Assembly (NCBI RefSeq): GCF_018336915.1
Contig: NZ_CP064923.1
Span: 1,830,001-1,862,000 of the forward strand
DNA from: Acaryochloris marina S15
GTDB taxonomy: Bacteria > Cyanobacteriota > Cyanobacteriia > Thermosynechococcales > Thermosynechococcaceae
Length of the DNA stretch: 32,000 bases
Direction: 5' to 3'
Shown: positions 3 through 29,550 of the stretch, piece after piece
Numbering within the stretch: the first letter of the stretch is position 1
How the letters are laid out: the number at the start of each line of letters is the position of its first letter
Program-made: the position numbers and the translations under genes
Notes under the pieces: model-generated
What the model was told of the DNA's origin: nothing
What the model saw: the letters and a program-made list of their open reading frames with translations, nothing else
The model's database searches: none

Positions 3-1391
3 GGGAATATTGCTGCCTTTGTATCTGATCAGATTAATATTTCGGGCAATACTCCAAATGCAGGCCAACCTAGTGGCATCTTTTCCATAGTTGAGGTAGG
101 AGCATCTGGGGCAGGCGGTCAACTACTCTTAAGTACAGGCCAAGTAGTCATTGACAATGGTGGCCAAATTTCTACCTCTACTACTGGTTTTGGAGCTGCT
201 GGCAAGATTGATATTAGGGCATCACAAGGAGTTACCTTAATCGATCCTGGAAGCGGAGTGTTTGCTAACACTACTGATACTGGACAAGGAGGAACTATTT
301 CATTGTTTACCCCAAATTTTCTGATTGAGAAGGGGGCTGTTGTCAATGCCAGTACTTCTGGGAATGGTCGAGGGGGCAGCATTTTTATCCGGTCCAATCG
401 TTTTACAGCTCGTCAAGGAGGTCAACTTCTATCTACGGCATCGGGTCAGGGACCAGCAGGGGATATCACCTTACAAGTGCGCGACAACATCACCTTGATT
501 GGGGCCAATAGTGGATTGTTTGCTAGCACTACACCTGATTCTACTGGGGCTGCTGGCAATATCTTTATCGATCCGATACAAGTGTTGATCACCAATGGTG
601 CAGCGGTATCAGCGACTAGCTTAGGTATGGGTAAAGGGGGAGATATTCAATTGCGCGCCCGCAATTTAACCCTAGACCAGGGCCAAATTACGGCTGAAGC
701 AGCAGTGGCCCCAGCGGGGGATATTCAGTTAAATATTGCCAACTTCTTACTATTACGAAATGGCAGTTTGATTTCGACGACTGCGGGTGGGGATGCTACG
801 GGGGGCAATATTGATATCAATGCTCAACTCGTTACAGCATTTCCATCGGAGAATAGTGATATTACGGCTAATGCCCTCAATGGTCCAGGTGGCAATATTA
901 CCATTACGACTCAAGGGGTTTTTGGCCTAGAGGTCCGAGACACGCTTACGAATTCCAGTGATATTGCGGCGTTTTCTCAGACTAATCCCCAACTCAACGG
1001 CATTGTCGAAATCATCACTCCTGAGGTGGACCCTAGCGAAAACTTATCTGAACAACCCGATGCCGTTGAAAAGCCGACGGAGATCTCTAGGGGGTGTAAC
1101 GCCCAAACGGCTAGTAGTAGTTTTGTGAGTAAGGGGCGAGGGGGCTTGCCCCACAATCCAGCGACTGCTTTGAGTAGTGAAGCTATCTGGCAGGATCTAC
1201 GTGCGCAAGAAATACAGTCTCCTGTGCAATCCATTAGTCAAATGACACCCAAATCCACTCCACAGGCACCTGTTGCTGCTCCATTCAAATGGGTAGAAGC
1301 CAAAGCTTGGCAAAGGTTACCTAATGGGAAAGTGAAGCTTGTGGGCAATTCAATCAATCAAAACACTTTGCATCCCGCGCCCTCTTGCTAG
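3..1391 (+). CDS. FHA-like beta-helical exoprotein, C-terminal part (5' end lies outside the window)
   Basis: Reading frame 3 is open from base 3 (GNIAAFVSDQINISGN...) into the tracked ORF 258..1391, so the listed Met is internal. The sequence has degenerate Gly/Asn/Thr/Ile-rich repeats (GGxIxI type) typical of FHA/TPS passenger beta-helices. The last ~180 aa align with the C-terminus of the 4216..6984 product: DITANALNG.GG.ITITT.G..GLE, PEVDPSENLSEQP, GRGGLP, WQDLR, and Cys as the last residue. Confidence 0.85.
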   Translation, partial: GNIAAFVSDQINISGNTPNAGQPSGIFSIVEVGASGAGGQLLLSTGQVVIDNGGQISTSTTGFGAAGKIDIRASQGVTLIDPGSGVFANTTDTGQGGTISLFTPNFLIEKGAVVNASTSGNGRGGSIFIRSNRFTARQGGQLLSTASGQGPAGDITLQVRDNITLIGANSGLFASTTPDSTGAAGNIFIDPIQVLITNGAAVSATSLGMGKGGDIQLRARNLTLDQGQITAEAAVAPAGDIQLNIANFLLLRNGSLISTTAGGDATGGNIDINAQLVTAFPSENSDITANALNGPGGNITITTQGVFGLEVRDTLTNSSDIAAFSQTNPQLNGIVEIITPEVDPSENLSEQPDAVEKPTEISRGCNAQTASSSFVSKGRGGLPHNPATALSSEAIWQDLRAQEIQSPVQSISQMTPKSTPQAPVAAPFKWVEAKAWQRLPNGKVKLVGNSINQNTLHPAPSC

Positions 1392-1714
1392 TTCATGTTC
1401 TCTGTCAGTGAAAGGTTCTAGTGCTTTGAAAGGGAATAGCGTAAGCTGCTGTAATCTGAATTACAAACTTATGTAAATCTCTGCACAAATGCCAGCTATT
1501 TTTCTGATAAATGGGTAGTTCGCCATTCATCCTGTCATTTGGGTTGCTATTTAGCATCACTGATGATTCTTGACTTGTTAATCTTTTTTAGTGATCGCAA
1601 AATATAGGCTAGCTGTGATAGATAATAAGCACATCCCATATGATCTTTACTAATTCGATTTTTTCTTTTAAGTCAAGAAAGTATAAGTCAAATATGTAGG
1701 TTGAGTGATTTCAG

Positions 1715-2812
1715 ATGGAATCCCCTAAATACCAATCAAATGAAGGAATAAAGATTGAAGGGGAAATCACATTGCTGATGTATCAGACGACATCAGACAA
1801 GAAAAAAGTTCAGCTCAGCTTATTCAAGCTGACAACAGATGATGATGAAATATTTACTTTCTGCAATCACTATAAAGAGTCTTCCAGTTCAAAAAGCATA
1901 AATATATTAGTGAGTCTGGAAAGCCTGCAATTTTTTGATGAATATAGTCAGAATCATTTTAGTCTCTTGAATAGAGTTGTAATCTCAGTTCGAGAGCAAG
2001 TTTTGGTAAGCATAGAAGCTGTTGCAGAGAAAAAAATATCTCGAAGTCTAAAAACAATCAACCAGGCATCAAATTTTGCGATTAACGCAAGTATCCCTAT
2101 TGAAGTTTTTTGTAATAGCCAACTAGCATCCCGTCATCAAGAGGCTTTTGACGCAGCAGCAGAACGATGGTCACAAATAGTAGTCGGAGGATATCCAAAA
2201 ATTGGAATTAATGCTCCCAAATCAGAAGGTATGATTATTGAGGTATTTACTTCATTTATTGATGGTCCTGGTGGGATTCTGGGGGGGGCCAAACCAATAG
2301 ATATTAGGGCTGGTTGGAGATTACCTAACGCTGGTTGGATGATATTAGACTCTAGTGATATTGAGCGAATGGATGATCAGGATATTTTAGTTGATGTAAT
2401 TTTGCATGAGATTGGACATTTATTAGGTTTAGGGACCCTTTGGCAGGCATCAGGATTAACACAAGGTATTGGAGGCAGTAATCCAGTATTTGTGGGGCAA
2501 AAAACCATGAGCGAATATGCTCGGCTGACAGGTTATACGGCTCCTATTCCTGTTCCGCTAGAGAATAGAGGTGGCTTTGGTACTAGAGATTTTCATTGGC
2601 GAGAATCCATGTTTGGAAATGAGTTAATGACAGGATTGGTAGATGGAAAAATAAACCCAATTAGCCGATTAACTATAGCAGCTTTGGAAGATATTGGTTA
2701 TCAAGTTAACTATGATGCAGCCGATCTTTATTCCATTAAAAATTTTAGCAGACTGAAAAAGCTAAATGATAGTACTCAAGGCATTTCTGGCCTCTACTGC
2801 TCTGTAAAATAA
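1715..2812 (+). CDS. Leishmanolysin-like (peptidase M8-like) zinc metalloprotease with an unrecognised ~190-aa N-terminal region
   Basis: 365-aa ORF. The HExxH zinc site VILHEIGHLLGLGTLW has HEIGH at nt 2405..2419. Family-typical blocks are FDAAAERWSQIVVG, IDGPGGILGGA, PLENRGGFGTRDFHWRESMFGNELMTG and NPISRLTIAALEDIGYQVNYDAAD. No N-terminal signal peptide is visible (MESPKYQSNEGIKIEGE...). Confidence 0.8.
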   Translation: MESPKYQSNEGIKIEGEITLLMYQTTSDKKKVQLSLFKLTTDDDEIFTFCNHYKESSSSKSINILVSLESLQFFDEYSQNHFSLLNRVVISVREQVLVSIEAVAEKKISRSLKTINQASNFAINASIPIEVFCNSQLASRHQEAFDAAAERWSQIVVGGYPKIGINAPKSEGMIIEVFTSFIDGPGGILGGAKPIDIRAGWRLPNAGWMILDSSDIERMDDQDILVDVILHEIGHLLGLGTLWQASGLTQGIGGSNPVFVGQKTMSEYARLTGYTAPIPVPLENRGGFGTRDFHWRESMFGNELMTGLVDGKINPISRLTIAALEDIGYQVNYDAADLYSIKNFSRLKKLNDSTQGISGLYCSVK

Positions 2813-2968
2813 TATGACTAATCATGGGCGAAGGAGATACAAATACTAATTTAAGTCAGCACAGAAAACCTATATGAATATCACACTAATAATTCATGAT
2901 ATATTCACGAGTATATCTTTTTATAGTTAGATTTAATTCATTCTACATTGAACCAAGGAGCTGATACG

Positions 2969-3421
2969 ATGACATCTAATACAATTGACATAAATCCGGA
3001 ATTTGTAAGGATCCTACAATCTGCTGTGGGAACTGATTTAGACTGCGAACAACTTAAAGCACTTAATTCCTCTTCTGTAAATATAGTTTTTGGCTGTGTT
3101 CAAGCATTAAGCTATATCCCTGATCTTAATGATCAAAAATGTAACCCTCCAGAACTTCAGAAAGTTTTACTCAGGGATATTTTTGGTCAAACTAAATCGA
3201 TTAAAAAAACTCGCTCTAACAATGATGATTGTATTGCTGAAAATTTGAATGATTTTGAGAGAATCTTTAAAAATGCTGCTGACTTCGGCCATGAAATTTT
3301 TGCCATTTCAAATGGCAAAAATTTAACTTTAGCTACATTGGTTATCAATAAGTGCAACGCAAAAAATGCTGCCCAAGCTGCATTTATAACTAAAGATGGT
3401 GGCAATCCGAATCCTTTCTAG
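2969..3421 (+). CDS. Hypothetical protein (~150 aa, several Cys), no recognisable family
   Basis: The tracked ORF 2948..3421 begins at a TTG. An AAGGAG Shine-Dalgarno at 2954..2959 sits 9 nt before the ATG at 2969 (MTSNTIDINPEF...), which is the more likely start. AT-rich codon usage matches the surrounding island. Confidence 0.5.
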   Translation: MTSNTIDINPEFVRILQSAVGTDLDCEQLKALNSSSVNIVFGCVQALSYIPDLNDQKCNPPELQKVLLRDIFGQTKSIKKTRSNNDDCIAENLNDFERIFKNAADFGHEIFAISNGKNLTLATLVINKCNAKNAAQAAFITKDGGNPNPF

Positions 3422-3727
3422 TCTTAAGCGCACAGTAAAGCAATAAAACGGCCAAAGTAAAGGCGTTGCTATATGCCAGGATGACTCCAATATTATCTAT
3501 ATCCAGAGATATTTTGTATTGCAAAGCTTTCAAGGTATATCGTTTTTTAAAGTCTTCTTCAAATTTTGCAACGCCCAATAAGGATCAACTGTTGTTTCTA
3601 TCATTAAACGTAGTTTGAGAATTGTTAATACTCCAAAAATAAAAATCGCCGAGACTTCATTATCACCAATTTTACTCAGGTATCTCTTCCCTAAGTCTAT
3701 GCACATATCAAAAGCTAGAAACCCCAC
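3390..3727 (-). pseudogene. Possible frameshifted small membrane protein (two overlapping ORFs, 3530..3727 and 3390..3578)
   Basis: Two short minus-strand ORFs overlap by 49 nt. Each carries one hydrophobic helix-like stretch (VSAIFIFGVLTILKL; IGVILAYSNAFTLAVLLLYCAL). Joined by one frameshift they would give a ~115-aa two-TM protein. There is no homology evidence, and the upstream ORF starts at GTG. Confidence 0.2.
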
Positions 3728-4088
3728 CTACCTACAGTCAGTTATTTAAATTCATTGAGATAAAGGCATATAGTTTTGTGAGAATACTTTGTGACGATAG
3801 CTTCTATCTTATAAATCTTATATAAATGCACTTTTAAGGATTCTCAAATCAAAGAAGCTAGCTAAGAATCTATTTTAGAAGTCTTTGGAAACCCTCGTCA
3901 AATCTAATTTTCAGCGGTTTAACTATTTCGGCCATAACCAAATACTGGATAAGACTTCTGGAAAAATTCCAAACAGATTCTAACATTTTTATTTTTAAAA
4001 AAATGATCCCATCAACCCCAATACTAAAATTTTTAAAGTATGTAGCTTTCACAGTAGTAGAGATTTTTTTTAAAATCCCTAAACTGGA

Positions 4089-4118
4089 ATTCCTATGACC
4101 TAATATTCCTATGACCTA
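4089..4118 (+). repeat. Two perfect 14-bp direct repeats (ATTCCTATGACCTA) spaced 16 bp apart, ~100 bp upstream of the FHA-like gene; candidate operator/activator site
   Basis: The copies lie at 4089..4102 and 4105..4118. A TATAAAT -10-like element follows at 4122..4128. A partial third TCCTAT occurs at ~4148. Confidence 0.6.
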
Positions 4119-4215
4119 CTATATAAATATTCTAAATTATCAAACAATCCTATAGTATAGATTTTCTTACAAAAGAAATCTGACTATTGCACTTAAGTTA
4201 CTTGATAGTTAACTT

Positions 4216-6984
4216 ATGAAGAATTTTATCCCAGCATTAGCAATCGCTCTAAATTTGACACTATTTTTAGCAGAAGCTTCATTTTTTTCTGTTCGGTGTC
4301 AATCAATTCAAGCTGATGGAACAACGCCTACAAAGATAGATCTGCCAGCATTTGGAAAATGCCAAGGTACTTGCACTATTTCAGGAGGAAAGCGTCAAGG
4401 GAATAACTTATTTCATAGCTTTGAAGAATTTAATGTGGACTTAGACTCAACAGTCTTATTTGTAAATCCAAATGCACAAAACATCATTAGCCGTGTGACT
4501 GGTAACAATCCTTCCAATATCTTAGGTACATTAGGAGTACAAAGTGGCGAGGCTAACTTATTTCTTGTAAACCCTAATGGAATTTTGTTTGGAGAAAAAG
4601 CTAGCTTAGGTCTTAACGGATCTTTTATAGCGACAACTGCGAATGCCATTCAATTTGGTAATCAAGGCATTTTGAGCGTTTCTAAATCTGACATTCCAAG
4701 GATTTCTATTAACCCTTCAGCATTGTTTTTTCAAGAAGCTAGTGGCGCAATTGTAAATAGTTCTCGTGAGGGACTTTCTGTACCTACCAGCCATAGCCTC
4801 CACCTTATTGGTGGTGATGTAATCCTAGACAATGGAAGAATCAATAGTTTTGGTGGTCGAGTTGAGTTGGGGGGGCTAGCTACATCTGGAATTGTGACTA
4901 TATTACCGGATAAAGAAGGTTTTTCCCTGAAATTCCCTGATAGCAATTTGAAGTCTAACGTACTACTTACTAACGCAAGAATTGATGTTACAGGTGAGGG
5001 TGGAGGTAATCTATCAATTAATGCAGGTGAGATAGAAATTGAAAGAAGCAGATTACTGGCAGGTATAGGGATTGACCTGGGCTCCAGTTTTACCCAAGCT
5101 GGAAATATTACACTTAAAGCAGATGAATCAATAACGATTCACAGTGAAAGTAATATTAACAATAGACCACTTTTTAATGCAAAAGGTTTAGGTGGTGATG
5201 TTGTTATTAATTCTAAAAGCTTATATGTGACTACAAATTCACAAGTAGGATCAAATACTTTTGGAATTGCATCTGCAGGTAATGTAATTCTAAAAGTTCA
5301 AGAAGAAATATTGTTAGATTCAGGGTCTATTTTTAATAGCGTAGCAACTTTTCAAGATTTTAGGGCAACAGGTAATGGTGGAAAAATAATTGTAGAAACT
5401 GATAAGCTTTATTTGAAAAATGAAGCCGAATTTGCAGCGAACGTTAACGGAACAGGTGATTCTGGTGGAATCACCATCAATGCTAGTGATATTATTCTAA
5501 GCAATTTTAGTGGAATACTTAGTAGTGTCGAAACAGGTGGAATTGGACAAGGTGGGGAAATAAGAATATTCACTGATACCCTTACTTTGCAAAGTGGATC
5601 GCAAATTGCCTCATCTGTCCTCAGGGCAGTAGGTGGTACACCTGGTGGAATTGGGGAAGGTGGAGATATACATATTGAGGCATCTGAAAGTATTAACATA
5701 TCTGGTTTCGATGAGACGAACGGATTCCCCAGCGGCATTTTAGCCGCTACTGAAGAGGGCGCTATTGGTCCTGCAGGAAATATAATTATAAAAACTGATA
5801 CCTTTAGTATTGTTGATGGAGCATTGTTAAACACAGATACTTTTAATAAGAGTGATGGTGGAAGCATTACAATTTTTTCAAATAACCTTGAAGTAATTAA
5901 TGGAGGTCGAATTAGCACCGCAACTTTTAATCAAGGTAATGCAGGTTTTATTAAGCTTAATGTGACAGGAGAGATAAAATTAGCTGGTAGTGATGCAAAT
6001 TTTGATCGCCGCCTTAAATTGATTGAAACTTTTTTAGTTGAAGCTGGTAGTGATAAAAATTTAGTTATAGACCGGATCAATAGCCTAAGAGACATTGGTC
6101 CTAACAGTGGTCTTTATGCTAGTGCGACTTCAGGTGCTTCTGGTAAAGCTGGAAATATTTCTATTGACCCCAGATTAGTTTTGATTCAAGATGGTGCCAA
6201 TATTACTGTTAATAACGCTGGCTCTGGACCAGGCGGTGATATTTTTCTCCAATCGATTGATTTGACTCTTGATAACGGAACAATCTCTGCAACATCTAAT
6301 AGTAATTCTGGTGGTAATATCTCTCTCTTAATAGATAATATTTTATTACTGCGCAATAACAGCCAGATATCAACTACTGCCGCTGGCGATGGCACAGGTG
6401 GAAATATTGATATCAAAGCCAGCCTTATAGTTGCCTATCCATTTGAAAATAATGATATAACTGCCAATGCGTTGAATGGGAAAGGTGGAAAAATTACTAT
6501 TACTACTAAGGGGATTTATGGGCTAGAGGAAAGAAATCAACTTACTGACTTAAGCGACATTACCGCTTTCTCACAAAATACTCAATTGAATGGGGTTGTG
6601 GAAATCACTAATCCAGAAGTCGACCCAAGTGAAAATCTATCTGAGCAACCTGAAGTCGTAGAACCCCCGAAAGAAATTGCCAAAGGCTGCCGACCTGGCC
6701 AATCCCTCGGTGGCAGCACATTCACCCACGTGGGTCGCGGTGGACTCCCTATAAGCCCCCACCACACCCAAACCCCCACCACTGTCTGGCAAGATCTTCG
6801 CTCTCACAACCTCCAACCCACCTCCATCAGCACCACCGATACATCACCCTCTTCCCTTATCCCCTCCCCGCCCCCCAACATCACCGAAGCCAAAGGCTGG
6901 ACCAAAGACACCCAAGGCCGTATTTACCTAACTGCCGACGTTCCCCAACCAGCCCAGAGCCTCCAACCCATTGCAACTTGCTAG
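4216..6984 (+). CDS. Filamentous-hemagglutinin-family exoprotein with N-terminal TPS (haemagglutination-activity) secretion domain
   Basis: 922 aa with a signal-peptide-like N-terminus (MKNFIPALAIALNLTLFLAEASFF). TPS-domain hallmarks are NLFHSFEEFNV, NIISRVTG and NLFLVNPNGILFG. A long degenerate beta-helix repeat region follows, then a conserved C-terminal module (6454..6984) shared with the 3..1391 product, and a Pro/Thr-rich tail ending in Cys. Confidence 0.9.
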   Translation: MKNFIPALAIALNLTLFLAEASFFSVRCQSIQADGTTPTKIDLPAFGKCQGTCTISGGKRQGNNLFHSFEEFNVDLDSTVLFVNPNAQNIISRVTGNNPSNILGTLGVQSGEANLFLVNPNGILFGEKASLGLNGSFIATTANAIQFGNQGILSVSKSDIPRISINPSALFFQEASGAIVNSSREGLSVPTSHSLHLIGGDVILDNGRINSFGGRVELGGLATSGIVTILPDKEGFSLKFPDSNLKSNVLLTNARIDVTGEGGGNLSINAGEIEIERSRLLAGIGIDLGSSFTQAGNITLKADESITIHSESNINNRPLFNAKGLGGDVVINSKSLYVTTNSQVGSNTFGIASAGNVILKVQEEILLDSGSIFNSVATFQDFRATGNGGKIIVETDKLYLKNEAEFAANVNGTGDSGGITINASDIILSNFSGILSSVETGGIGQGGEIRIFTDTLTLQSGSQIASSVLRAVGGTPGGIGEGGDIHIEASESINISGFDETNGFPSGILAATEEGAIGPAGNIIIKTDTFSIVDGALLNTDTFNKSDGGSITIFSNNLEVINGGRISTATFNQGNAGFIKLNVTGEIKLAGSDANFDRRLKLIETFLVEAGSDKNLVIDRINSLRDIGPNSGLYASATSGASGKAGNISIDPRLVLIQDGANITVNNAGSGPGGDIFLQSIDLTLDNGTISATSNSNSGGNISLLIDNILLLRNNSQISTTAAGDGTGGNIDIKASLIVAYPFENNDITANALNGKGGKITITTKGIYGLEERNQLTDLSDITAFSQNTQLNGVVEITNPEVDPSENLSEQPEVVEPPKEIAKGCRPGQSLGGSTFTHVGRGGLPISPHHTQTPTTVWQDLRSHNLQPTSISTTDTSPSSLIPSPPPNITEAKGWTKDTQGRIYLTADVPQPAQSLQPIATC

Positions 6985-7112
6985 ACACCCCAGATTGACC
7001 GAAAATAAATGACTAAATCGGGAAACTGGGCATTTGTCATTCGTTTGTGAACATGGGCAAAAGAATCTGGAAAAGCATCACACCATCAACAACCGTGAGG
7101 AAGGGAACATTA

Positions 7113-9740
7113 ATGCTTCAAAGAAAGGCTCGAAGACTACTGCCTATTACTCGTAGAAAATTACGCTGGTTGGGAGTGGCCCTTTGCAGTACCTGCCTAG
7201 TCCTTGGCCTAAGCCTTGAGCAACGTCCTGCCCACTCCACCTCGGCCCTCCCTACCGCGAACCAACTGACCATCAACGCTCCTACAACTCCTCGCCCACG
7301 CCTAGCTAGCAACCCGACCCAACTGGTGGAACAAGGGAAAGCCTTTTACCAAGGGGGACAGTATGCCGCAGCCGCAGAAGCCTGGTCTCAAGCTGCCCAA
7401 AGCTATAAAGGTCAACCCCTTAATCAAGCCATCGTCCTCAATCAGCTGAGTCTTGCTCAGCAAGAACTGGGTCAATGGCTAAAAGCCCAAGATAGTATTC
7501 GCCAAAGCCTAGAGATAGTTGGTGAACCACCAGCCCCTCAGAATTTGTCCATCTATGCTCAAGCACTAAATGCCCAAGGCAGTTTAAATTTGTCCCAAGG
7601 CGACCCCAAAAGCGCCTTGGACACCTGGGGTAAAACAGCAGAAATTTATGCTCAACTTGGAGATGAAATTGGTCGCATTGGTAGCCTGATTAATCAGGCC
7701 CAAGCCCAGCAAGTCATGGGACTCTACCTTCAGTCTCGAAAGAATCTGGAAAAAGTCACCGCTGAATTGGACCAACAGGCTAATCCTGCAATTCGGGCCA
7801 CTGGTTACCGCAGTTTAGGTAATGTATTACGCTTAGTCGGTGATCTAGAAGAAGCAGAGAGATCTCTACTCCTGAGTTTACAGAACGCCGAAGCAACCGA
7901 CGCTCCCCAAGAAGTGAGCATGACCCAACTCAGTTTGGGAAATACTGCTCGTGCCCGCAAATCCTTTGACCTTGCTATTGACTATTACCAAAAAGCAGCC
8001 CAGTCTCCTATTCCATCGACCCAGCAACAGGCTCGGCTAAATCTACTCAGCGTCTTAATTGAGAAACAGGACTGGTCCCAAGCCCAACAGCTCTGGCCTC
8101 AAATTGAAACGGAATTAAGTGGGCAACCCCCCAGTCGCCGCAATATCTACAGCAAGGTTAACCTCGTCAAAAGCCTGGTAAAGCTTAATCAAGAGTCATC
8201 TAGCAAGACTCCCTCTATTCCTGACATTGCCAACATTACGGCAAAGGCAGTTCAGCAATCCTATGATATTGATGATCCGCGTGCCCAAGCTTATGCTTTA
8301 GGAAATTTAGGAAATTTATATGAACTAGGTGAACAGTGGTCAGAAGCTCGCAAATTGACGGAGCAAGCTCTTTTTATTGCCCAGGCGAATAATGCCAGTG
8401 AGATCAGTTACCAGTGGCAATGGCAATTGGGGCGCATTATGGATGCCCAAAAGCAAACCGATCAGGCCACCTCTGCTTATCAAGGAGCCTTTCAGACCTT
8501 AGAATATCTCCGCAAAGATCTGGTTGCTACTAATCCGGAAGCCCAATTCTCCTTCCGTGAAAGTGTGGAGCCTGTGTATCGAGAACTCGTAGATTTATTG
8601 CTGCGGGGGGACAATCCGAGTCAGGAGAATCTGAAACAGGCTCGTGCAGTGATGGAATCTCTGCAGTTAACGGAATTAGATAATTTCTTTCGGTCTGCTT
8701 GCCTGGATGGTCAAATTATCAGTATTGAAGATATTGACCAACAGTCAGCAGCAGTGGTGTACCCCATTCTGCTCAAGGATCGCATTGAACTGATCACCAG
8801 CTTGCCTCAGCAGGAAGGCTTAAAGCATCAAACGATTCCTATTCCCCAGTCTGAAGTAGAAGAGACCATCAAGCTTTTTCGTGAGGAAATCGAAAAACCC
8901 TACACCTTTATTGAAAGTAAGGAGTTAGGCCAAGTTGTCTACAACTGGCTGATTCAACCCCTCCAAGCTGAATTAGAGGAAAGCCAGGCCGATACATTAG
9001 TATTTGTGCTGGATGGGGCACTCCGTAACCTTCCTCTGGCTGCCTTATATGATGGCGAGAAATACCTGATCGAAGAATATGCTCTGGCTTTGGCTCCAGG
9101 CATGCAGCTGATCAATACTGAGCCTCTGCAAGGGCGAGAACTCCAAGTGATTGCCGCGGGGATTAGCGAAGCACGAGGTTTTTATCCACCCCTGGAAAAT
9201 GTCAAAAAAGAATTAGATAAGATTAGCCGATTGGTTACTAGTACAGTGCTGCTGAATCGTGATTTTACTAGTACTTCACTACGAGAACAGATCCAGTCCT
9301 TGCCCTATCCCATTGTGCATCTTGCCACCCACGGTAAATTTAGCTCAGAAGCAGAGAAAACCATACTGCTGGCTTGGGACAAAGAAATCAACGTCAATCA
9401 GCTTAATGAGCTATTGCGTAGCAGTGAACAAGTCCGGCCAGAACCCATTGAGCTTCTAGTGCTAAGCGCCTGCGAAACGGCTGCTGGAGATGACCGGGCT
9501 GCCTTAGGGTTAGCGGGTGTCTCAGTTCAAGCAGGAGCACGTAGCACCCTGGCTTCCCTATGGAGTTTGGACGATGAGTCAACTGCCTCCCTTATAGGAG
9601 AGTTCTATGACGAACTCGTTCAATCTAAAGTCTCCAAGGCCAAAGCCCTACAAAAAGCCCAGGTCGCTATGATCAGCGATCCAGACTTCCGTCACCCAGC
9701 CCACTGGTCAGCATTTGTGCTGGTAGGGAACTGGCTGTAG
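7113..9740 (+). CDS. Exported TPR-repeat / CHAT-domain (caspase-fold) protease-like protein
   Basis: The ORF is open from 7047 (GTG). The ATG at 7113 is preceded by GAGGAAGGGA and gives MLQRKARRLLPITRRKLRWLGVALCSTCLVLGLSL, a basic stretch plus hydrophobic signal/anchor. The central part has TPR-like helical repeats (e.g. GKAFYQGGQYAAAAEAWSQAAQSY, ALGNLGNLYELGEQWSEARKLTEQAL). The C-terminal CHAT domain has a His-Cys dyad in the contexts IVHLATHGKF (His codon 9330..9332) and LLVLSACETAAGD (Cys codon 9471..9473). Confidence 0.88.
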   Translation: MLQRKARRLLPITRRKLRWLGVALCSTCLVLGLSLEQRPAHSTSALPTANQLTINAPTTPRPRLASNPTQLVEQGKAFYQGGQYAAAAEAWSQAAQSYKGQPLNQAIVLNQLSLAQQELGQWLKAQDSIRQSLEIVGEPPAPQNLSIYAQALNAQGSLNLSQGDPKSALDTWGKTAEIYAQLGDEIGRIGSLINQAQAQQVMGLYLQSRKNLEKVTAELDQQANPAIRATGYRSLGNVLRLVGDLEEAERSLLLSLQNAEATDAPQEVSMTQLSLGNTARARKSFDLAIDYYQKAAQSPIPSTQQQARLNLLSVLIEKQDWSQAQQLWPQIETELSGQPPSRRNIYSKVNLVKSLVKLNQESSSKTPSIPDIANITAKAVQQSYDIDDPRAQAYALGNLGNLYELGEQWSEARKLTEQALFIAQANNASEISYQWQWQLGRIMDAQKQTDQATSAYQGAFQTLEYLRKDLVATNPEAQFSFRESVEPVYRELVDLLLRGDNPSQENLKQARAVMESLQLTELDNFFRSACLDGQIISIEDIDQQSAAVVYPILLKDRIELITSLPQQEGLKHQTIPIPQSEVEETIKLFREEIEKPYTFIESKELGQVVYNWLIQPLQAELEESQADTLVFVLDGALRNLPLAALYDGEKYLIEEYALALAPGMQLINTEPLQGRELQVIAAGISEARGFYPPLENVKKELDKISRLVTSTVLLNRDFTSTSLREQIQSLPYPIVHLATHGKFSSEAEKTILLAWDKEINVNQLNELLRSSEQVRPEPIELLVLSACETAAGDDRAALGLAGVSVQAGARSTLASLWSLDDESTASLIGEFYDELVQSKVSKAKALQKAQVAMISDPDFRHPAHWSAFVLVGNWL

Positions 9741-9759
9741 TTTTGTTTTCATAAAAAAA

Positions 9760-9832
<73 letters not shown>

Positions 9833-10046: not shown

Positions 10047-11336
10047 CTATTGGGAAGATGATTGCAGGCTGCCGTTATTATTGGCCAGAATTTTCTCGTT
10101 CAGTACAGAGAGGGCTTTGGCATATTGAGGATCGGCGAGGGTGCCAATCTTTTCTCGGTCTAGAGAAAGGGCTTCCCGCTGATCATCTGTGAGTTTGACC
10201 TCGATATCTGGTTCAATCCCTTTTTTGTTGATATCTCGACCGCTAGGGGTAAAGTATTTGGCAACGGTCACTGCCAGACCTGAACCATCCTCTAAAGGAT
10301 GCACGGATTGAACCAGCCCTTTACCAAAGGTTTTAGTGCCAATGAGAACGGCCCGTTTGTTGTCCTGCAAGGCCCCAGCTAGAATTTCGCTGGCACTAGC
10401 TGATCCTCCATCTACAAGGATTACAAGGGGTTTATCTGTGAGGGTGTTTTTACCAGAGGTGAGCTTGTCTTCACCGCCTTTACGATCCACTGTGGAAACA
10501 ATGGTGCCTTTACCCATCCACATGCGAGCGATCTCTGCACTGGAGTAGAGTAAACCCCCTGGATTAGAACGCAGGTCAAGGATAAAGCCTTCAACCTTTT
10601 GTTTGTTCAAGGCTTGAATCGCTTCGCGCATTTCCGAGGAGGCATTGTTGCTGAACTGATTGAGGCGAATATAGCCTACATTACCGGCTGGGTTTTTTTG
10701 GTTGGAAAAGCGAACAGGATGTATCTCGATTCGGGCTCGCTTGATCTTGAAATTTAGTTGCTCTTTATCTCGTAGAACAGTGAGGGTAACGTCGGTGTTG
10801 ACGGGACCCCGAATTAAGCTGACGACACCATTAATATCCATCCCTTTGGTGCTTTTGTTGTCAACTTTGATGATGACATCCTTAGATAAAAGTCCAGCGT
10901 CTGCGGCTGGACTTCCTTCGATGGGGGAAATAACGGTGATGTTTTTGGTCTCTTCGTCCTGGGTAATTTGAATCCCAACCCCAGTCAGCTCACCGGAGGT
11001 ATCAATTTGCATGCTCTTGAATTGCTCTGGATCCATGAAGCGAGTGTAAGGATCTTCAAGCTTGTCCAGCATTTCTCGGACTGCTTTATAGGCTTCATCC
11101 CGAGAGGTATAGTTGCGATTTAAATATTTGTTGCGAATATCACGCCAATCATTGCCGTTAAATGTGGCGTCAACATAGTCATGATTGATGACTTGCCAAA
11201 CCTCGTCCACCACTTCTTTCGGACTTTCTTTGAACACGGCCCAACTGGACTGCCAAAGGTTTGCACCAATGACGACAACACCCGCTCCAACAAGGGCTGT
11301 TGTTCCTAATACTAGTCCGTCTTTTGAATTCGCCAT
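10047..11336 (-). CDS. Carboxyl-terminal processing protease (peptidase S41, PDZ domain), Ctp family
   Basis: The sequence shows an N-terminal hydrophobic anchor (LVLGTTALVGAGVVVIGA), a PDZ region (GVGIQI...ISPIEGSPAADAGL...DVIIKVDN) and an S41 catalytic region (LRSNPGGLL, VDGGSASASEILAGALQD, GTKTFGKG). The tracked ORF extends to a GTG at 11366; the ATG at 11336 (MANSKDG...) is the more likely start. Confidence 0.92.
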   Translation of the reverse strand: MANSKDGLVLGTTALVGAGVVVIGANLWQSSWAVFKESPKEVVDEVWQVINHDYVDATFNGNDWRDIRNKYLNRNYTSRDEAYKAVREMLDKLEDPYTRFMDPEQFKSMQIDTSGELTGVGIQITQDEETKNITVISPIEGSPAADAGLLSKDVIIKVDNKSTKGMDINGVVSLIRGPVNTDVTLTVLRDKEQLNFKIKRARIEIHPVRFSNQKNPAGNVGYIRLNQFSNNASSEMREAIQALNKQKVEGFILDLRSNPGGLLYSSAEIARMWMGKGTIVSTVDRKGGEDKLTSGKNTLTDKPLVILVDGGSASASEILAGALQDNKRAVLIGTKTFGKGLVQSVHPLEDGSGLAVTVAKYFTPSGRDINKKGIEPDIEVKLTDDQREALSLDREKIGTLADPQYAKALSVLNEKILANNNGSLQSSSQ

Positions 11337-11468
11337 AAGCCTAACCCAATTGGTTTCGTGAGGCACTATCCCCTTCTGTGTACAACAGAGGGACAGTGAG
11401 GTACGCCCACTCTAGCACAAGCTTCTAGAAGGCTACATGAGTTGGAAATGAGTTTTGAATGATGGGAT

Positions 11469-13205
11469 TTATTCTTGCTGTTGCCAAGTCTGAATTTGGA
11501 GTTGAGCAGAGTCATAGACGCGACTATTACTGGGTATTTTTTGTGCGATCGCAATTGCTGCATCCCGATCAGCCAGTGCTTGTCCTCGGGCCATATCTAG
11601 CAACTGCTCAGACCAGTTATCAATGGAAACTTTGGCTTGAAACTGGGATGGTGACTCTGGATCAATTTGATTGGCTTGCTCAATCGCTGCTGCTAAGGCT
11701 TTGGGGGTTCCCTTGTTGGCAATGGTTTCTGCACTTTTAAGGAGTTGATCAGGACCATTTGCAGGCACCGTTTGCAGAGGCTCATTTAAAGGAGTACTTT
11801 CTGGGGGTTGGAGTTGATATTGCCAATCAGAAATCCGAAGTTGAGCTTCATCGTATAACGTTCGCCCGGGCCGTATTCTTTGGGCCTCTTGAATAGCGGC
11901 CTGTAGAGCGGTTGGACCACCCTGTAAAGCTAATTGATCGGCTCGGTCGAGAATGGGCTGATCTTCCCGGAACTGAATTTGAGATTGCCACTGGTCAATC
12001 TCTTGTTGGGCTTCTTGCCAACGGTCGCTCTGGGATGAAATTTGCTGGGCTTGAGCGACTGCAGAGGATAAATCGCCGATGTCTCCGGTTTGGGCTTGCA
12101 TCTGGGCCGTTTGCAGCAGTTGAATATTGGTAATTTCTTTTTGCCAGTGGGAGATTAAGGTTTGGGCCTTTCCATAGAGAGGACTGTTGATATCCAGCTT
12201 ACTAGCCTGGTTAATGGCTTCTTCTAGATTCACGATGGTGCCATTCCAAGCAGAGGCGCTAGCTTGAGCAATTTTCATAAAGTCTTGGGCTTGCGTCCAG
12301 ACCGGCGTATCCTGCGGAATCAGCTGCAATGCATCCATGCTGGCATGGTAGTTGCGCCGCTCTAATGAATATTCCGCAATCGTTACGAGTTTGCGGGCTA
12401 TAGTGTTTTGGGTCTTCCGAGCAGATCGTCGATAGACACTATCTGAAATCAGCTCTTGGACGAGTCCTAGGGATTCCGATAGATTATCTAGTCCTCCTCG
12501 CCGCATTAAACGCTTGGCTTTGACCAATTTGCGCTCATCTTTCTGGGCAACGATAATCTTCTCGGTCATGGAATCAAACTGAGTGCCGGACCAGTAGCGA
12601 TTATCGATCTGAACCAGCTTGATCATAATGCCGTAGGCTTTTCGCCATTCCTCATTATCGAGGGCAGCCTCGGCTCGATTGTAGATGTCTTCTCCTTCGG
12701 CCCAAATCTGCTGCCATTCCTCTACACGCTCTTTGACGACTTTGTAGGCGGTGGTTTGAGCGGGGATGCGTTGGGCATATTCAATGGCGCGGTCTAACTT
12801 GCCCGCATGAAAGGCATTTTCTGCTAGATCCAGTGCTTGGGTGGACCATTGCTCAATTAAAGGATTGATCGCTGGGCGAAGGGGATGGTTGGTATCGAGG
12901 GCATCCACTAATGCGATCGCAGCAAACAAATCTTCTAAGGTCTGTTTACTCGCTTTTTCCTGGGCACAGTAAACCCGCAACGAACCGGATGCGAAGGGCC
13001 AAAAGACTTGAGCACAGTTGGGTTTTGCTGGCTGATGCAAGAGCAATCGGTAGGATCCAAAACCAACCCCGCCTGATAGCGCAATCGCAACCATGCCCCA
13101 AATGGGCCAATATTTTAAAAACTTAAATCTGCTGGCACCTCGATGGCTCACAGCTTCTGAGCTGATGGAAGAGGCAATAAGATTGGTTTTAGAATCAGTC
13201 GTCAT
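11469..13205 (-). CDS. Membrane-anchored repeat protein (about 8 copies of a ~31-aa A-I-x2-A-x2-I ... Y-x2-A-Q-x2-I-x2-W-Q motif), function unknown
   Basis: 578 aa with one N-terminal TM helix (WPIWGMVAIALSGGVGFGSYRLL). Example recurring units are LDRAIEYAQRIPAQTTAYKVVKERVEEWQQI, LEEAINQASKLDINSPLYGKAQTLISHWQKE, LQAAIQEAQRIRPGRTLYDEAQLRISDWQYQ and RDAAIAIAQKIPSNSRVYDSAQLQIQTWQQQ. It lies on the same strand as the ctp-like gene, ~100 bp upstream of it. Confidence 0.75.
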   Translation of the reverse strand: MTTDSKTNLIASSISSEAVSHRGASRFKFLKYWPIWGMVAIALSGGVGFGSYRLLLHQPAKPNCAQVFWPFASGSLRVYCAQEKASKQTLEDLFAAIALVDALDTNHPLRPAINPLIEQWSTQALDLAENAFHAGKLDRAIEYAQRIPAQTTAYKVVKERVEEWQQIWAEGEDIYNRAEAALDNEEWRKAYGIMIKLVQIDNRYWSGTQFDSMTEKIIVAQKDERKLVKAKRLMRRGGLDNLSESLGLVQELISDSVYRRSARKTQNTIARKLVTIAEYSLERRNYHASMDALQLIPQDTPVWTQAQDFMKIAQASASAWNGTIVNLEEAINQASKLDINSPLYGKAQTLISHWQKEITNIQLLQTAQMQAQTGDIGDLSSAVAQAQQISSQSDRWQEAQQEIDQWQSQIQFREDQPILDRADQLALQGGPTALQAAIQEAQRIRPGRTLYDEAQLRISDWQYQLQPPESTPLNEPLQTVPANGPDQLLKSAETIANKGTPKALAAAIEQANQIDPESPSQFQAKVSIDNWSEQLLDMARGQALADRDAAIAIAQKIPSNSRVYDSAQLQIQTWQQQE

Positions 13206-20281: not shown

Positions 20282-21277
20282 GTGGTGCAGCTCAGTGATA
20301 CCCGGATTTTAATGATTGAGGATGATGAGCAGGATGTAGAAATCATCAGAGAATTACTAGAGGGCCGTCATAGTTTCCCTACAGCTCTTGAGCATCGGAG
20401 TTCACTCGCAGAAGGGATAGCTCGACTTCATCATGAACCTGCCGTTGACCTTGTGCTTCTTGATTTATCTTTAACGGATGCCAGTAATCTAGAAGCTTTT
20501 CAACAAATTCAACTGAATTTTCCAGAAATGCCTCTGATCATTCTCAGTGGTAATTTAGATCCATCTAGAGCATTATATCTATTGCAACAAGGTGCACAAG
20601 ATTGTCTATTTAAAGGGCATTTTGATGCTACCATCCTACGTTGCTCAATTCAATTTGCTCTAGAAAGACAGAATCTTTGGTTGGAATTAAGAGAGAAGAA
20701 TAAGGTCTTAGAAAAAATTTCAAAAGAGCTCAAAGTAGCTAACCATAAACTCGAAAAAATATCAGCGATAGATAGTTTAACTCACATCAATAATCGACGT
20801 CGATTTGATTCGATATTTCTGGCAGAATGGATTCGAATGATGCGAGAACAGCAACCTCTATCCCTGATTCTCTGTGATGTCGATCACTTTAAGGCGTATA
20901 ACGACACCTATGGACACCCTGCGGGTGATAAATGTCTACAGCAGGTTGCCCGAGCCCTTTCTGCTGTAGCTAAGCGTTCTGCAGACTGTGTAGCTCGTTA
21001 TGGTGGAGAAGAATTTGTGGTGGTGCTACCTAACACCGATCAAGCTGGAGCGCTTCATGTCGCTGAAACCATTAGATCGGAAATCGAAGCTCTCAGTATT
21101 CCCCATAGCTCTTCCTCTGTCAGTCATTATGTTAGCCTCAGCTTAGGAGTAGCTTGTATCATTCCAAGCAAAGCGATAGCCCCATCTCAGTTGATTGAGC
21201 TGGCAGATCAAGCTCTATATGTGGCAAAAAAACAAGGCCGTAATCGAACTCATACTCTTGAATTGATCCAAACATAA
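20282..21277 (+). CDS. Response regulator receiver + GGDEF diguanylate cyclase
   Basis: The REC domain shows ILMIEDDEQDVEII, the acceptor Asp in VLLDLSLTD, ILSGN and CLFKG. A coiled-coil linker follows, then a GGDEF domain with GGEEF (nt 21002..21016) and an RxxD I-site (RSAD) 5 aa upstream. The start is GTG with an AAGGGGGAAGG ribosome-binding site. Confidence 0.9.
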   Translation: MVQLSDTRILMIEDDEQDVEIIRELLEGRHSFPTALEHRSSLAEGIARLHHEPAVDLVLLDLSLTDASNLEAFQQIQLNFPEMPLIILSGNLDPSRALYLLQQGAQDCLFKGHFDATILRCSIQFALERQNLWLELREKNKVLEKISKELKVANHKLEKISAIDSLTHINNRRRFDSIFLAEWIRMMREQQPLSLILCDVDHFKAYNDTYGHPAGDKCLQQVARALSAVAKRSADCVARYGGEEFVVVLPNTDQAGALHVAETIRSEIEALSIPHSSSSVSHYVSLSLGVACIIPSKAIAPSQLIELADQALYVAKKQGRNRTHTLELIQT

Positions 21278-21359
21278 TTTTTGACTTTTCTTCGGAATTG
21301 AAAGGGGATAACTGGCTGCCTTCTAAATATCTCTTAGGGTGAAAGACATTCTAAGTAAA

Positions 21360-23150
21360 TTAGTGGGCCATAGATGAAGGTTGCATGCTCATATACTGTT
21401 TGAGGGGAAGGGCTCGCTCAAAATGATTTCCCTGGGCATAGTTAATTCCTAGGTTATCTAGTGCGTTAAGGGTCATTTCTGATCTAACTTGCTTGGCGAT
21501 GGTTTTGGAATTCATGACATCAGCTACTCGCTTGATTGACTCTAAAATTCCATGCAATATGGGATCTTCAGTAATACCTTCAACCAGCTCTCCATTGATT
21601 TTTACGTAATCTGCTTTTATAGGTTTCAACTGTTTAAAAGTCTTGAAATCTACACCGAAATCATCTAAAGCAATCTGACAGCCTAACGCTTTAAGGGATT
21701 GTGAAAGTTTCACCGCCGAGGATAAATTTTTCAATGCAACTGATTCTGAAATTTCAAAGCAAAGTTGACTAGCTGGAAAGTCGTATAGATTGAGCTGTTG
21801 TTGGACCAGCTCAGATAGATTTCCCGCCTTACAGGTTGCAGCAGAGAGCTTGATAAAGTAAATAGCCTCAAACTTCTTATGTGCATAAATCTGTGTGTGT
21901 TCTAACAACAAGTGCTCAATCATCCACTGGTCAATCTGAGCCATAAAATCATACTGTTCAAGCATGGGCAGAAACATTTCGGGAGCACAAGCTCGACCGG
22001 ATTGATCGCAGAGTCGCAGTAAAATATCGAAACTCTCTATGCTACTTACTCTATTCAATGAATGAATGGGCTGAACATATAGCTTAAATAGATCGTTTTG
22101 TAATGCCTGGTGTAGCTTGCCCACCCAATGTAATGTTTGGCGAGTGTATAACTCAGACTTAGCATCCCGAATCGTTTGCCAATTGACCTGATGTCGTCCG
22201 CGAGCTTTAGCTCCTATCAATGCTTGGTGCGCAGCTTCAATCAATAAAGAGGGTGCTTCTAGATACCTCGGGACATGGCCTGTGATGCCAAAACTGAGGG
22301 TTGTAGGTTGATGGTGTGAGGTTGAGAGATAATCTGCACCCAGTTTTTGGACTTGAATGCGGATGGCTTCAGCAATGAAGGTTGCTCCCAAAATATCGGT
22401 ATTGGGTAACAAGATCACAAATTGATTTTCACTATATCGAGCGATACAATCTGCTGGACGCTTAATGATGTGGAACATCACCTCAGCGATTTGATGCAAA
22501 ATATGATCTTCCCAGGTTGTAGAAACTGGATCGATCTCAGCTTCAATCGGATCTAGCTCACAGAGAATGAGGGCTAATGGTTGTTCTTCGCGCTGTAGTC
22601 TTTTCCATTCAGATAGGAAAACGTCGTCAAACTGAGTTCGGTTATAAAAATTGGTAAGAGAGTCAATCGTTTCAAGCTTTTTGATCTCAGACTGGGCTAT
22701 TTCTAGTTGCTTTGATAATGCTTGAAGGGCATTATTCTGGAGCTCTAGTTCTAGTTTTTGTTTCTGAATTTCTAAAGCATGTTGAATGGAGTAACACAAA
22801 GCAGAACTATCGAAAGTACCTTTGATTAAGAAATCTGTTGCTCCCTCTTTCAGTGTTTCTTGAACAACGGCTTGGTTTGAATTACCACTCAGAATAATGA
22901 GAGGTTTTTGCGGAAAAGCTTGATGGACTTGATGAAATGTGTCTAAACCTTTAGCGTCAGATAACGTGAGATCTAGTAGGATTAGATCAATAGACTCATT
23001 ATTGTGTAAGAAATTGATGCTTTCCGATAAAGTATGCTTATGTTGAAGTATTAATGGTAGTTGAGGCAAGTTATCTAGAAAACTACGAACGATCTCTGCA
23101 TCCTGTTCGTCGTCTTCAATCATTAAGACATGTGTTTTTGTTGATCGCAT
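21360..23150 (-). CDS. Response regulator receiver + degenerate GGDEF (SENQF) + degenerate EAL; predicted non-catalytic c-di-GMP receptor/adaptor
   Basis: The REC domain is intact (VLMIEDDEQDAEIV, ILLDLTLSD, ILSGN, FLIKG). The GGDEF A-site is replaced by YSENQF (nt 22419..22433) while the RPAD I-site is retained. The EAL signature residues are changed compared with the neighbouring paralog: DIL for E(A/I)L, FIKLS for FINLS, KING for KIDG, and IAKQVRS for IAEYVES. Confidence 0.85.
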   Translation of the reverse strand: MRSTKTHVLMIEDDEQDAEIVRSFLDNLPQLPLILQHKHTLSESINFLHNNESIDLILLDLTLSDAKGLDTFHQVHQAFPQKPLIILSGNSNQAVVQETLKEGATDFLIKGTFDSSALCYSIQHALEIQKQKLELELQNNALQALSKQLEIAQSEIKKLETIDSLTNFYNRTQFDDVFLSEWKRLQREEQPLALILCELDPIEAEIDPVSTTWEDHILHQIAEVMFHIIKRPADCIARYSENQFVILLPNTDILGATFIAEAIRIQVQKLGADYLSTSHHQPTTLSFGITGHVPRYLEAPSLLIEAAHQALIGAKARGRHQVNWQTIRDAKSELYTRQTLHWVGKLHQALQNDLFKLYVQPIHSLNRVSSIESFDILLRLCDQSGRACAPEMFLPMLEQYDFMAQIDQWMIEHLLLEHTQIYAHKKFEAIYFIKLSAATCKAGNLSELVQQQLNLYDFPASQLCFEISESVALKNLSSAVKLSQSLKALGCQIALDDFGVDFKTFKQLKPIKADYVKINGELVEGITEDPILHGILESIKRVADVMNSKTIAKQVRSEMTLNALDNLGINYAQGNHFERALPLKQYMSMQPSSMAH

Positions 23151-23277
23151 TTGCTCCCCCTTAAATGCAACTCTGCATTTAATTAAAAAATTAAAAAGAC
23201 TTGGATTTTATTTTCTTTTTTGTTCAATTTTTTGATGTATTTTTAAGTAAGATACTAATCCTTCCTCACTGGAACGA

Positions 23278-29294: not shown

Positions 29295-29550
29295 CGTTTT
29301 ATAAAGTCCTGTTTTCCTGTATCTGAAAATCATTATGAAGATCTTGAACTCGGAAAACCATCGTTAAAACACGGGAATATCAAACTTTTTGAGTTTTGAT
29401 TTTTCCGCATTTCTACGGAGCTTTACATGAATATGAATCATGAGCTAAAAATAAGAAGATCCTGAAAAGCTTATGAGAACTGGCATAGAGGGATCAGTAA
29501 ATAATTCTATTTGGATAGAATAAAGGAGACGCAAGGAAAAAAAATTTTTA

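Follow-up and report, generated by a model that had tools for sequence, protein, structure and literature searches.

The subject of this analysis is a 32,000-nt window of the Acaryochloris marina S15 genome (NZ_CP064923.1, 1,830,001-1,862,000; coordinates below are window positions unless another locus is named), and in particular an AT-rich block that begins behind one gene for a two-partner secretion (TPS) exoprotein, g1, and ends inside a second one, g2. We consider it likely that the region ~1490-6650 is one allele of a replacement-type hypervariable island, which sits at a fixed Acaryochloris locus and is exchanged by homologous recombination at its conserved edges. Many deeply diverged, AT-rich cassette alleles coexist in the genus. 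The left edge of exchange is the 3′ end of g1 together with a ~45-nt palindromic element, the right edge is the C-terminal module of g2 together with the CHAT gene downstream, and a finer patchwork is found within the cassette as well as over the ~4 kb of the right flank nearest to it. The codon-usage step at ~6679 is thus a permanent border, because a hypervariable pool with a G+C content at third codon positions (GC3) of ~0.2-0.3 meets there a conserved, species-tracking 3′ module with a GC3 of ~0.6. An abrupt intragenic step in codon usage can therefore mark a long-lived recombination border and not a recent foreign insertion. The parts of the locus are as follows.

3..1391, + strand: 3′ 462 codons of g1, the first TPS/filamentous haemagglutinin (FHA)-like gene; left conserved flank, recognised from its translation
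1447..1489, + strand: left-edge element; conserved, intergenic, palindromic and promoter-like
1715..2812, + strand: gene for a leishmanolysin-like (M8) zinc metallopeptidase, cassette gene 1 (Pfam PF01457, E=6e-10, above the cutoff)
2948-3421, + strand: orf157, cassette gene 2 (2969..3421 from ATG, 150 aa); paralogue of the peptidase domain X
3422..4215, + strand: AT-rich non-coding spacer upstream of g2 (GC 0.28-0.33)
4216..6642, + strand: variable part of g2, the second TPS exoprotein gene (signal peptide, TPS domain at aa 31-267, beta-helical shaft)
6643..6703, + strand: junction in g2 (GC3 change point at nt 6679 plus identity rise), encoding ...SEQPEVVEPPKEIAKGCRPGQSLGG...
6643..6984, + strand: conserved C-terminal module of g2; right conserved flank (GC3 ~0.6)
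7047..9740, + strand: TPR-CHAT protease-like gene (Pfam CHAT, E=3e-59; TPRs; N-terminal hydrophobic anchor)

The GC content is 0.480 over 1-1391, 0.359 over 1392-6660 and 0.454 over 6661-32000, and maximum likelihood places the GC change points at nt 1451 and nt 6591. An earlier reading of these letters alone (the sequence-only reading) had estimated mid-30s %GC by eye for 1392-6660 and had described an abrupt codon-usage switch near 6655-6680, after which the CHAT gene was host-like in composition. The computed values agree with all three statements: the block has 35.9% GC vs 45-48% in the flanks, the single best GC3 change point in ORF 4216-6984 lies at codon 821 (nt 6679; 2-log support interval 6643-6703), and the CHAT gene has a host-like GC3 of 0.45. 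In g2, the first ~820 codons have a GC3 of ~0.23 and the final ~100 codons one of 0.62; the log-likelihood ratio for the change point is 30.7 vs a maximum of 9.1 among 1000 permutations. The M8-like gene (0.28) and orf157 (0.25) are low as well. The absence of HIP1 sites from the block, which had been offered as a further sign, is uninformative: the six sites in the remaining 26.7 kb lead to an expectation of 1.18 in the block, and the probability of finding none is 0.31.

The step could in principle be a composition artefact that mirrors the Pro/Thr/Gln-rich tail. The tail is indeed rich in Pro/Thr/Ser/Gln, and GC1 and GC2 also rise there. However, when host codon usage is applied to the encoded residues, a GC3s of 0.41 is expected in the 5′ part of g2 and one of 0.43 in the 3′ part, while the observed values are 0.23 (z=-10.6) and 0.59 (z=+3.3). 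Since the expected values are nearly equal, the step is not an amino-acid effect, which is what the sequence-only reading had maintained for the Pro/Thr-rich tail. In addition, the GC3 does not rise at the tail in the homologues from Nostoc (L025), L014 and L018 that carry this C-terminal module, so that the step is not intrinsic to the gene family, and the identity to relatives shifts at the same point. We therefore find an artefact of this kind barely credible. The tail itself (6680-6984) has a GC3 of ~0.6, above the host mean of ~0.42-0.45 (z=+3.3 with amino acids controlled), and is similarly high in nine of ten loci (0.53-0.58; the exception is L004 with 0.39). The 3′ end, which the sequence-only reading had taken to be resident, is thus not merely host-like in composition.

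A separate TPS gene on a metagenome contig (L027 8001-11123, homologue P0022), which lies in a different context, has an internal GC3 step of its own, from 0.32-0.43 over the first ~660 codons to 0.52-0.63 thereafter; intragenic mosaicism may be common in the TPS gene family.

We compared 11 syntenic Acaryochloris loci, namely the window and ten further loci that were gathered through the contigs of the best g2 homologues and through the CHAT protein. The latter comprise A. marina MBIC11017 (L004), two Acaryochloris metagenome-assembled genomes (L005 and L006) and seven Logan assemblies (L001-L003, L022-L024 and L028). An exact-sequence look-up of g2 and CHAT gave no match; the relatives were reached by homology, and the best g2 homologues are Acaryochloris proteins of just 44-59% identity. 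At all 11 loci the block lies at the same place, between the g1/LOR side and CHAT-S41-orf578-Hsp33. The order g1, M8, small ORF, g2, CHAT, S41, orf578 and Hsp33 is found in L002-L006, L022, L023, L024 (without g1) and L028, and partially in L001. The block is 4.9-5.5 kb long with a GC content of 0.34-0.41 (0.35 in L028) vs 0.47-0.52 in the flanks, and every allele is AT-rich, with a GC3 of 0.21-0.32 in the g2 N-part. The amino-acid identities among the loci are:

M8 peptidase: 35-53%
Small ORF: 21-43%
g2 N-part: 43-57%
g2 tail: 67-87%
CHAT: 77-97%

Overall, the flanks are 77-100% identical among the loci. The M8-like peptidase of the window shares 35-43% of its residues with eight other tabulated alleles and 87% with that of L028 (P0122), and within g2 the TPS domain is 47-65% and the shaft (residues 268-500) 31-51% identical. 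The g1 part of the window is 86-87% identical at the nucleotide level to L002, L003 and L004. When the window was aligned to its relatives by blastn, matches of 72-87% covered 1-~1500 and matches of 73-94% began at 6584-6616, with only patchy 65-75% matches in between. The unit that varies therefore takes in the M8-like gene, the small ORF, the spacer upstream of g2 and the TPS domain with the beta-helix, just as the sequence-only reading had drawn it.

Exchange between backgrounds is evident from an allele class that is common to L002, L024 and L006 (M8 82-86%, small ORF 74-83%, g2 N-part 77-90% aa). L006 represents a different species-level lineage (CHAT 77-78%), and its cassette is nonetheless 82% (M8), 83% (small ORF) and 90% (g2 N-part, aa) identical to that of L024. 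The relation is reversed between L024 and L003, which share 97% in CHAT and 47% in the g2 N-part. The same holds for synonymous divergence (dS): between L024 and L006 it is 0.22-0.31 in the three cassette genes and 2.5 in CHAT, whereas between L003 and L024 it is 1.7-2.2 in the cassette, 0.20 in CHAT and 0.59 in the tail (dN/dS 0.08-0.20), where values above ~1 are saturated and qualitative only. In a three-way scan, L024 follows L006 (85-97%) from ~7400 to ~12450 and then L003. This switch falls at g2 codons ~816-833, that is, in the EVDPS..L.E.P...GC...GRGGLP stretch that is homologous to positions 6620-6700 of the window, and the identity of the window to eight of nine loci rises at 6583-6672 (60-nt windows), overlapping the GC3 change point. 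Both observations confirm that ORF 4216-6984 is a mosaic gene with its junction in the conserved C-terminal module, as had been proposed.

Between the window and L001, L002, L003 and L024, dS ranges from 1.3 to saturated in the block and is 0.48-0.59 in CHAT and about 0.5 in the tail. Faster protein evolution alone is therefore insufficient, because the divergence of the block is synonymous too. Divergence in situ without recombination, with diversifying or relaxed selection on the block, purifying selection on the tail and CHAT, and a composition driven by selection (e.g. through low expression or DNA structure), would account for the same composition profile at all orthologous loci, for a tail that is a widely conserved protein module and for a block composition near equilibrium. 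However, the block dS is several-fold above that of the flank for close strains, the crossover is clean, and the window, which matches L003 at 100% beyond ~4.4 kb to the right of the junction, shares only ~50% of its residues with L003 in the g2 N-part. Above all, the inverted relation of L024 and L006 (block dS 0.22, CHAT 2.5) is impossible under vertical descent with rate variation, and we hold this explanation to be very improbable. The sequence-only reading had set a composition profile shared by all orthologous loci against mosaicism. The profile is in fact shared by all 11 loci, and mosaicism is not refuted by it. Both hold: the composition is an old property of the whole allele pool, and the alleles are shuffled among lineages, as the L024/L006 discordance indicates, so that a profile common to all relatives does not exclude a mosaic.

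The comparison of the window with L003 also indicates how far an exchange reaches. From ~50% aa identity in the g2 N-part, the nucleotide identity rises to 80-87% just right of the junction, is 80-94% across the tail and CHAT as well as the tRNA region, with an extra dip at ~9018-9818, and reaches 100% beyond ~4.4 kb (~nt 11,000). Because the two are identical only past ~11,000, the latest recombination tract seems to reach far beyond the composition boundary on the right-hand side. This slope is the gradient of imported divergence beside the exchanged island. In addition, the breakpoints vary by pair: the window shares 6262-6600 with L002 (76-92%), 6082-6200 with L001 and patches at 5560-6700 with L028. 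L028 is related to the window as a patchwork, with 98-100% identity at 1360-1800, 90-96% over most of the peptidase gene, 68-80% in the small ORF, an unalignable spacer, 59-77% in the 5′ half of g2 and 86-96% at 6062-6700. The cassette thus usually moves as a unit, and internal reshuffling also occurs.

On the left side, the ~45-nt element at 1447-1489 hardly varies among nine aligned loci, even though one of them, L024, is without g1, and similarity among the loci collapses just downstream of it at ~1490-1530. It contains the perfect palindrome TGTAAT-CTGA-ATTACA (TGTAATCTGAATTACA) at 1450-1465, which occurs once in the window, and a CATAAT-like -10 hexamer follows ~20 nt past the palindrome in most loci (CACAAA in the window). 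No covariation for an RNA structure was found in the element. It resembles operators of the CRP/NtcA family, whose consensus sequences are TGTGA-N6-TCACA and GTA-N8-TAC, in the placement of a class II promoter. The element is likely to be an operator plus promoter as well as the left recombination anchor.

The gene to the left of this element is polymorphic in its own right. g1 is absent in L024, 1375 aa long in L023 and 35-46% identical in L022, and a g1 class is common to L006 and L023 (71%); therefore, the variable region is nested and larger than the AT-rich block. Beside the island the divergence of g1 is raised, with a dS of 0.68-0.78 in the tail vs 0.26-0.28 in the N-part. The last ~120 codons of g1 are a paralogous copy of the C-terminal module (EVDPS...GC...GRGGLP), and g1 and g2 are old paralogues that reach their best nucleotide identity, ~70%, around 6330-6660. 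We also considered a recent conversion between the g1 and g2 tails and rejected it, the tails being just 33-50% (aa) and ~33-48% (nt) identical after the junction.

On the right side, the C-terminal module comprises ~120 residues with the pattern EVDPS..L.E.P...GC...F..GRGGLP...W.D...EAKGW...G...L...C-stop. It was found in g1 and, under the strict pattern, in 53 of 120 cyanobacterial TPS homologues, and no Pfam or NCBIfam model covers it. The CHAT gene lies directly downstream of g2 at the Acaryochloris loci. Outside the genus, distant cyanobacterial CHAT loci have an upstream TPS gene only sometimes (L014, L018), and a general TPS-CHAT operon is not established from them. The locus thus points to a widespread, unannotated C-terminal module of cyanobacterial TPS proteins and to its constant pairing here with a TPR-CHAT protease. 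Our literature search found nothing on this locus or on TPS-CHAT pairing in cyanobacteria.

The sequence-only reading had viewed the block as a foreign head acquired by this genome, and a single recent import from a low-GC donor that took the place of the front of a resident gene and carried the peptidase and the orphan ORFs with it would explain the low GC and GC3 and the sharp junction. The allele of the window is, L028 aside, unique among the data found, and the g2 alleles are not monophyletic in a neighbour-joining tree, where Nostoc is nested among them, so that some may have crossed genera. This explanation is nevertheless improbable to us, because all 11 loci have a comparable low-GC block at this place, with unchanged gene content and order, which is at odds with an acquisition by this genome, and because the Nostoc and metagenomic g2 relatives are found without the peptidase/small-ORF/CHAT context. 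A foreign signature in tetranucleotide usage, another expectation of the import, was not seen: after normalisation for base composition, the correlation between the block and the remainder of the window is r=0.746, within the host range of 0.71-0.89 given by same-sized controls, a test that has low power at 5 kb and in which the block stands at the low end of the control range. Neither is there the excess of AT->GC changes expected in amelioration, since polarised substitutions in the L024/L006/L002 class number 193 AT->GC and 175 GC->AT, corresponding to an equilibrium GC of 0.42 vs a current 0.39. Scans of the window and the block revealed no integrase, IS element or flanking repeats, the repeats found being beta-helix coding repeats, and gave no sign that the tRNA-Phe gene served as an integration site.

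The tetranucleotide usage, the substitution balance and the missing mobile hallmarks together argue for a long-resident pool of AT-rich alleles and not for a recent low-GC import. In the neighbour-joining tree of the TPS domain, ~950-aa Nostoc proteins fall within a clade with 100% bootstrap that holds most Acaryochloris alleles, while the L002/L006/L024 class lies outside it; it follows that the lineages of alleles are of great age or that some of them have at times passed between genera. We infer that the AT-richness is the usual AT bias of flexible DNA that is held for long and rarely recombines homologously, and does not stem from a recent low-GC donor.

Several points weigh against the exchanged-island interpretation. 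No near-identical copy of the window's allele was found on a divergent background, and since its best partner, L028, is itself a patchwork, the transfer of this particular allele is deduced from the locus-wide pattern. Most of the comparison loci are Logan assemblies of sequencing runs whose strain identity is unverified, and the larger dS values are subject to the saturation mentioned above. The equilibrium (amelioration) test covers one allele class and is weak evidence on the cause of the AT-richness. The excess of the tail GC3 (~0.6) over the host mean might stem from biased conversion at a recombination hot zone or from codon selection. Finally, no TpsB gene was found, as no ORF in the 32-kb window matches the ShlB/POTRA families, and this transporter may be encoded at another site of the chromosome or genome. 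The exposure of the exoprotein at the surface, the part of phage or neighbours as selective agents, and the CHAT-tail and peptidase-partner interactions are features that we infer.

Replacement flexible genomic islands have been described in aquatic prokaryotes for clusters of O-chain, flagellar glycosylation, S-layer and giant-protein genes (Lopez-Perez, Martin-Cuadrado, Rodriguez-Valera 2014, PMC4033161), and frequency-dependent selection has been proposed to maintain their diversity (PMC4033161). As in those islands, the same locus is occupied in every strain by the same type of function with barely alignable sequence, the conserved boundaries serve homologous exchange between divergent backgrounds (L024/L006), peaks of mostly synonymous substitution occur in the bordering genes (80-87% rising to 100% between the window and L003), integrase and IS hallmarks are missing, and the products are expected to be surface-exposed, here on the basis of sequence features. 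Position, divergence, discordant backgrounds and the substitution peak at the border, the features that we tested, were thus all found. In contrast, the Acaryochloris cassette is small (5 kb, three genes); its right boundary is intragenic at a domain border and gives rise to a chimeric protein; it consists of a TPS exoprotein, a peptidase and a domain paralogue instead of glycosyltransferases; and the alleles found are old (dS of at least 0.2 in the closest pair), with no very recent swap seen among them. This kind of island is already known, and the Acaryochloris locus is a clean further example and not a new phenomenon. Being compact and well delimited, with an intragenic crossover at a domain border and a conserved, operator-like anchor on the left, it makes the selective agent, whether phage, grazers or neighbours, testable.

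A similar arrangement is that of gnd beside the O-antigen cluster in E. coli and Salmonella, where a low-GC variable cluster is present in all strains and recombination tracts end inside the flanking genes, which show raised mosaic polymorphism. The Acaryochloris locus shares the low-GC variable cluster in all strains and recombination that ends in a flanking conserved gene, while its junction splits one structural gene, and the organism and gene content differ. A classical integrase-type island, on the other hand, does not agree with what we found, as the block is in all loci, integrase, IS and repeats are missing, and the tetranucleotide correlation lies in the control range.

The product of g2 is a 922-aa TPS exoprotein (PF05860, E=4e-44 at aa 31-267; TIGR01901, E=4e-22) with an N-terminal signal peptide and an NPxG-type motif, 'NPNGI'. 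From its signal peptide, TPS domain and beta-helix repeats, it is predicted to be exported with a surface-exposed shaft. The diversity of the shaft may be kept by frequency-dependent selection, with recognition by phage or grazers or recognition between cells as candidate agents. The peptidase and its domain-X partner would co-vary with the shaft through an allele-specific interaction with it or with each other, and the C-terminal module may be conserved through working with the resident TPR-CHAT protease, in processing or anchoring.

TPS proteins are known to deliver toxins in contact-dependent growth inhibition (CDI), as in CdiA/CdiI and other polymorphic toxin systems (Zhang et al. 2012, PMC3482391). 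The g2 locus is like CDI in that the exoprotein gene is modular and of the TPS family, a conserved peptide motif lies at the border of the conserved and variable parts, and small neighbouring genes co-vary with the variable part. The polarity, however, is reversed: variation affects the TPS domain and the shaft, conservation the last ~120 residues (67-87% aa), the co-varying genes lie upstream, and instead of a C-terminal toxin domain, a VENN-type motif and a downstream immunity gene there is a conserved CHAT gene downstream. The locus is thus not a CDI or polymorphic toxin system as defined so far, because of its reversed polarity and the lack of a C-terminal toxin and a downstream immunity gene. 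As a tentative idea that we think unlikely, the locus might encode an undescribed cyanobacterial recognition or conflict module, in which an allele-specific triad of a variable TPS shaft, an M8-like peptidase and a domain-X copy acting as cognate inhibitor or adaptor is joined, through recombination at a fixed domain border, to an invariant tail that is handled by a periplasmic, caspase-like TPR-CHAT protease. If true, it would be a 'reverse-polarity' counterpart of CDI, where the processing or anchoring end is conserved while the secretion-competent head and the accessory enzymes are swapped.

A related possibility, which we regard as doubtful, is an effector/immunity system in which the M8 peptidase is the effector, the domain-X protein its inhibitor and the TPS exoprotein the means of delivery or recognition, with inter-strain conflict, and not the evasion of phage or grazers, driving the diversity. 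The peptidase, the small ORF and the exoprotein N-part do largely co-vary across alleles, the small ORF is paralogous to the N-terminal domain of the peptidase, which would suit a pro-domain-like inhibitor, the family evolves fast and is lineage-restricted, and TPS proteins are the delivery vehicles of CDI. Against this, the variable part of g2 is N-terminal and neither a C-terminal toxin behind a conserved motif nor a downstream immunity gene is present, the peptidase is encoded as a protein of its own in which no export signal can be recognised, and the peptidase and g2 alleles are uncoupled between the window and L028. PADLOC returned only generic TPR/CHAT-like matches, and the AlphaFold model of the small protein (mean pLDDT 35) is unusable.

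Whatever their role, the cassette alleles are functional, since all cassette ORFs are intact and have a dN/dS of 0.22-0.54 (0.25-0.54 for the M8-like peptidase). The HEIGH (HExxH) motif of the peptidase is kept in nine of nine alleles. The protein has an N-terminal 'domain X' and no signal peptide, and a PDB sequence search with it gave no match. Its catalytic domain recurs widely in other phyla as part of secreted proteases that have several domains and different accessory ones; matches from these phyla cover the catalytic part and not the N-terminal region. The orf157 alleles match the N-domains of the peptidases (1715-2068 in the window) with an hhalign probability of 99.8% (E=7e-28), and orf157 is therefore a stand-alone paralogue of the peptidase domain X. 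Its family is tiny, with 3 matches in 5.8 billion proteins and 10 representatives in 1.84 billion, and is almost confined to these loci, which points to a lineage-restricted pair of a peptidase and a domain paralogue. The spacer at 3422-4215 is the least conserved part of the block and is unalignable even with L028, despite 90-96% identity in the neighbouring peptidase gene. A promoter scan marked a promoter-like site at 4048-4076 within it, and just past this site, ~100 nt upstream of the g2 start, lies a 16-nt tandem repeat at 4089-4120 (ATTCCTATGACCTAAT / ATTCCTATGACCTACT).

Downstream of g2 the genes follow in the order TPR-CHAT, tRNA-Phe, S41/PDZ peptidase, orf578 and Hsp33, and the following features belong to this flank.

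9760-9832, - strand: tRNA-Phe(GAA) (Rfam), directly downstream of CHAT and ~3 kb outside the AT-rich block; the only hit of the Rfam scan
10047-11366: S41/PDZ peptidase gene, conserved flank
11469-13205, - strand: orf578, a conserved protein of 578 aa that has a single hydrophobic segment at the N-terminus and an extended helical repeat region rich in Gln; syntenic in all loci

orf578 was considered as the missing TpsB and discarded, since its sequence is helical and gave no match in Pfam, NCBIfam or the PDB. In Bordetella FhaB, a conserved C-terminal prodomain is removed by periplasmic proteases that include the S41 tail-specific protease CtpA. The g2 product is likewise a TPS exoprotein with a conserved C-terminal region apart from the shaft, and CHAT and S41/PDZ genes lie in the conserved flank. 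In contrast to FhaB, the ~120-residue cyanobacterial module has no sequence relationship to the FhaB prodomain, and cyanobacterial S41 peptidases also have unrelated roles. By this analogy, an involvement of CHAT or S41 in processing of the tail might be imagined.

In the type strain (L004 10001-12694), the CHAT gene is broken up into ORFs of 472 and 383 aa and is therefore a possible pseudogene there. Further along the window, at 26842-28248 on the - strand, another CHAT-domain gene, shorter at 468 aa, adjoins a sigma-70 family gene (28494-29333, - strand). Between these and the orf578 region, three consecutive response-regulator GGDEF or GGDEF-EAL genes at 20282-25080 have a GC of 0.40-0.42 and a GC3 of 0.31-0.37, below their neighbours.

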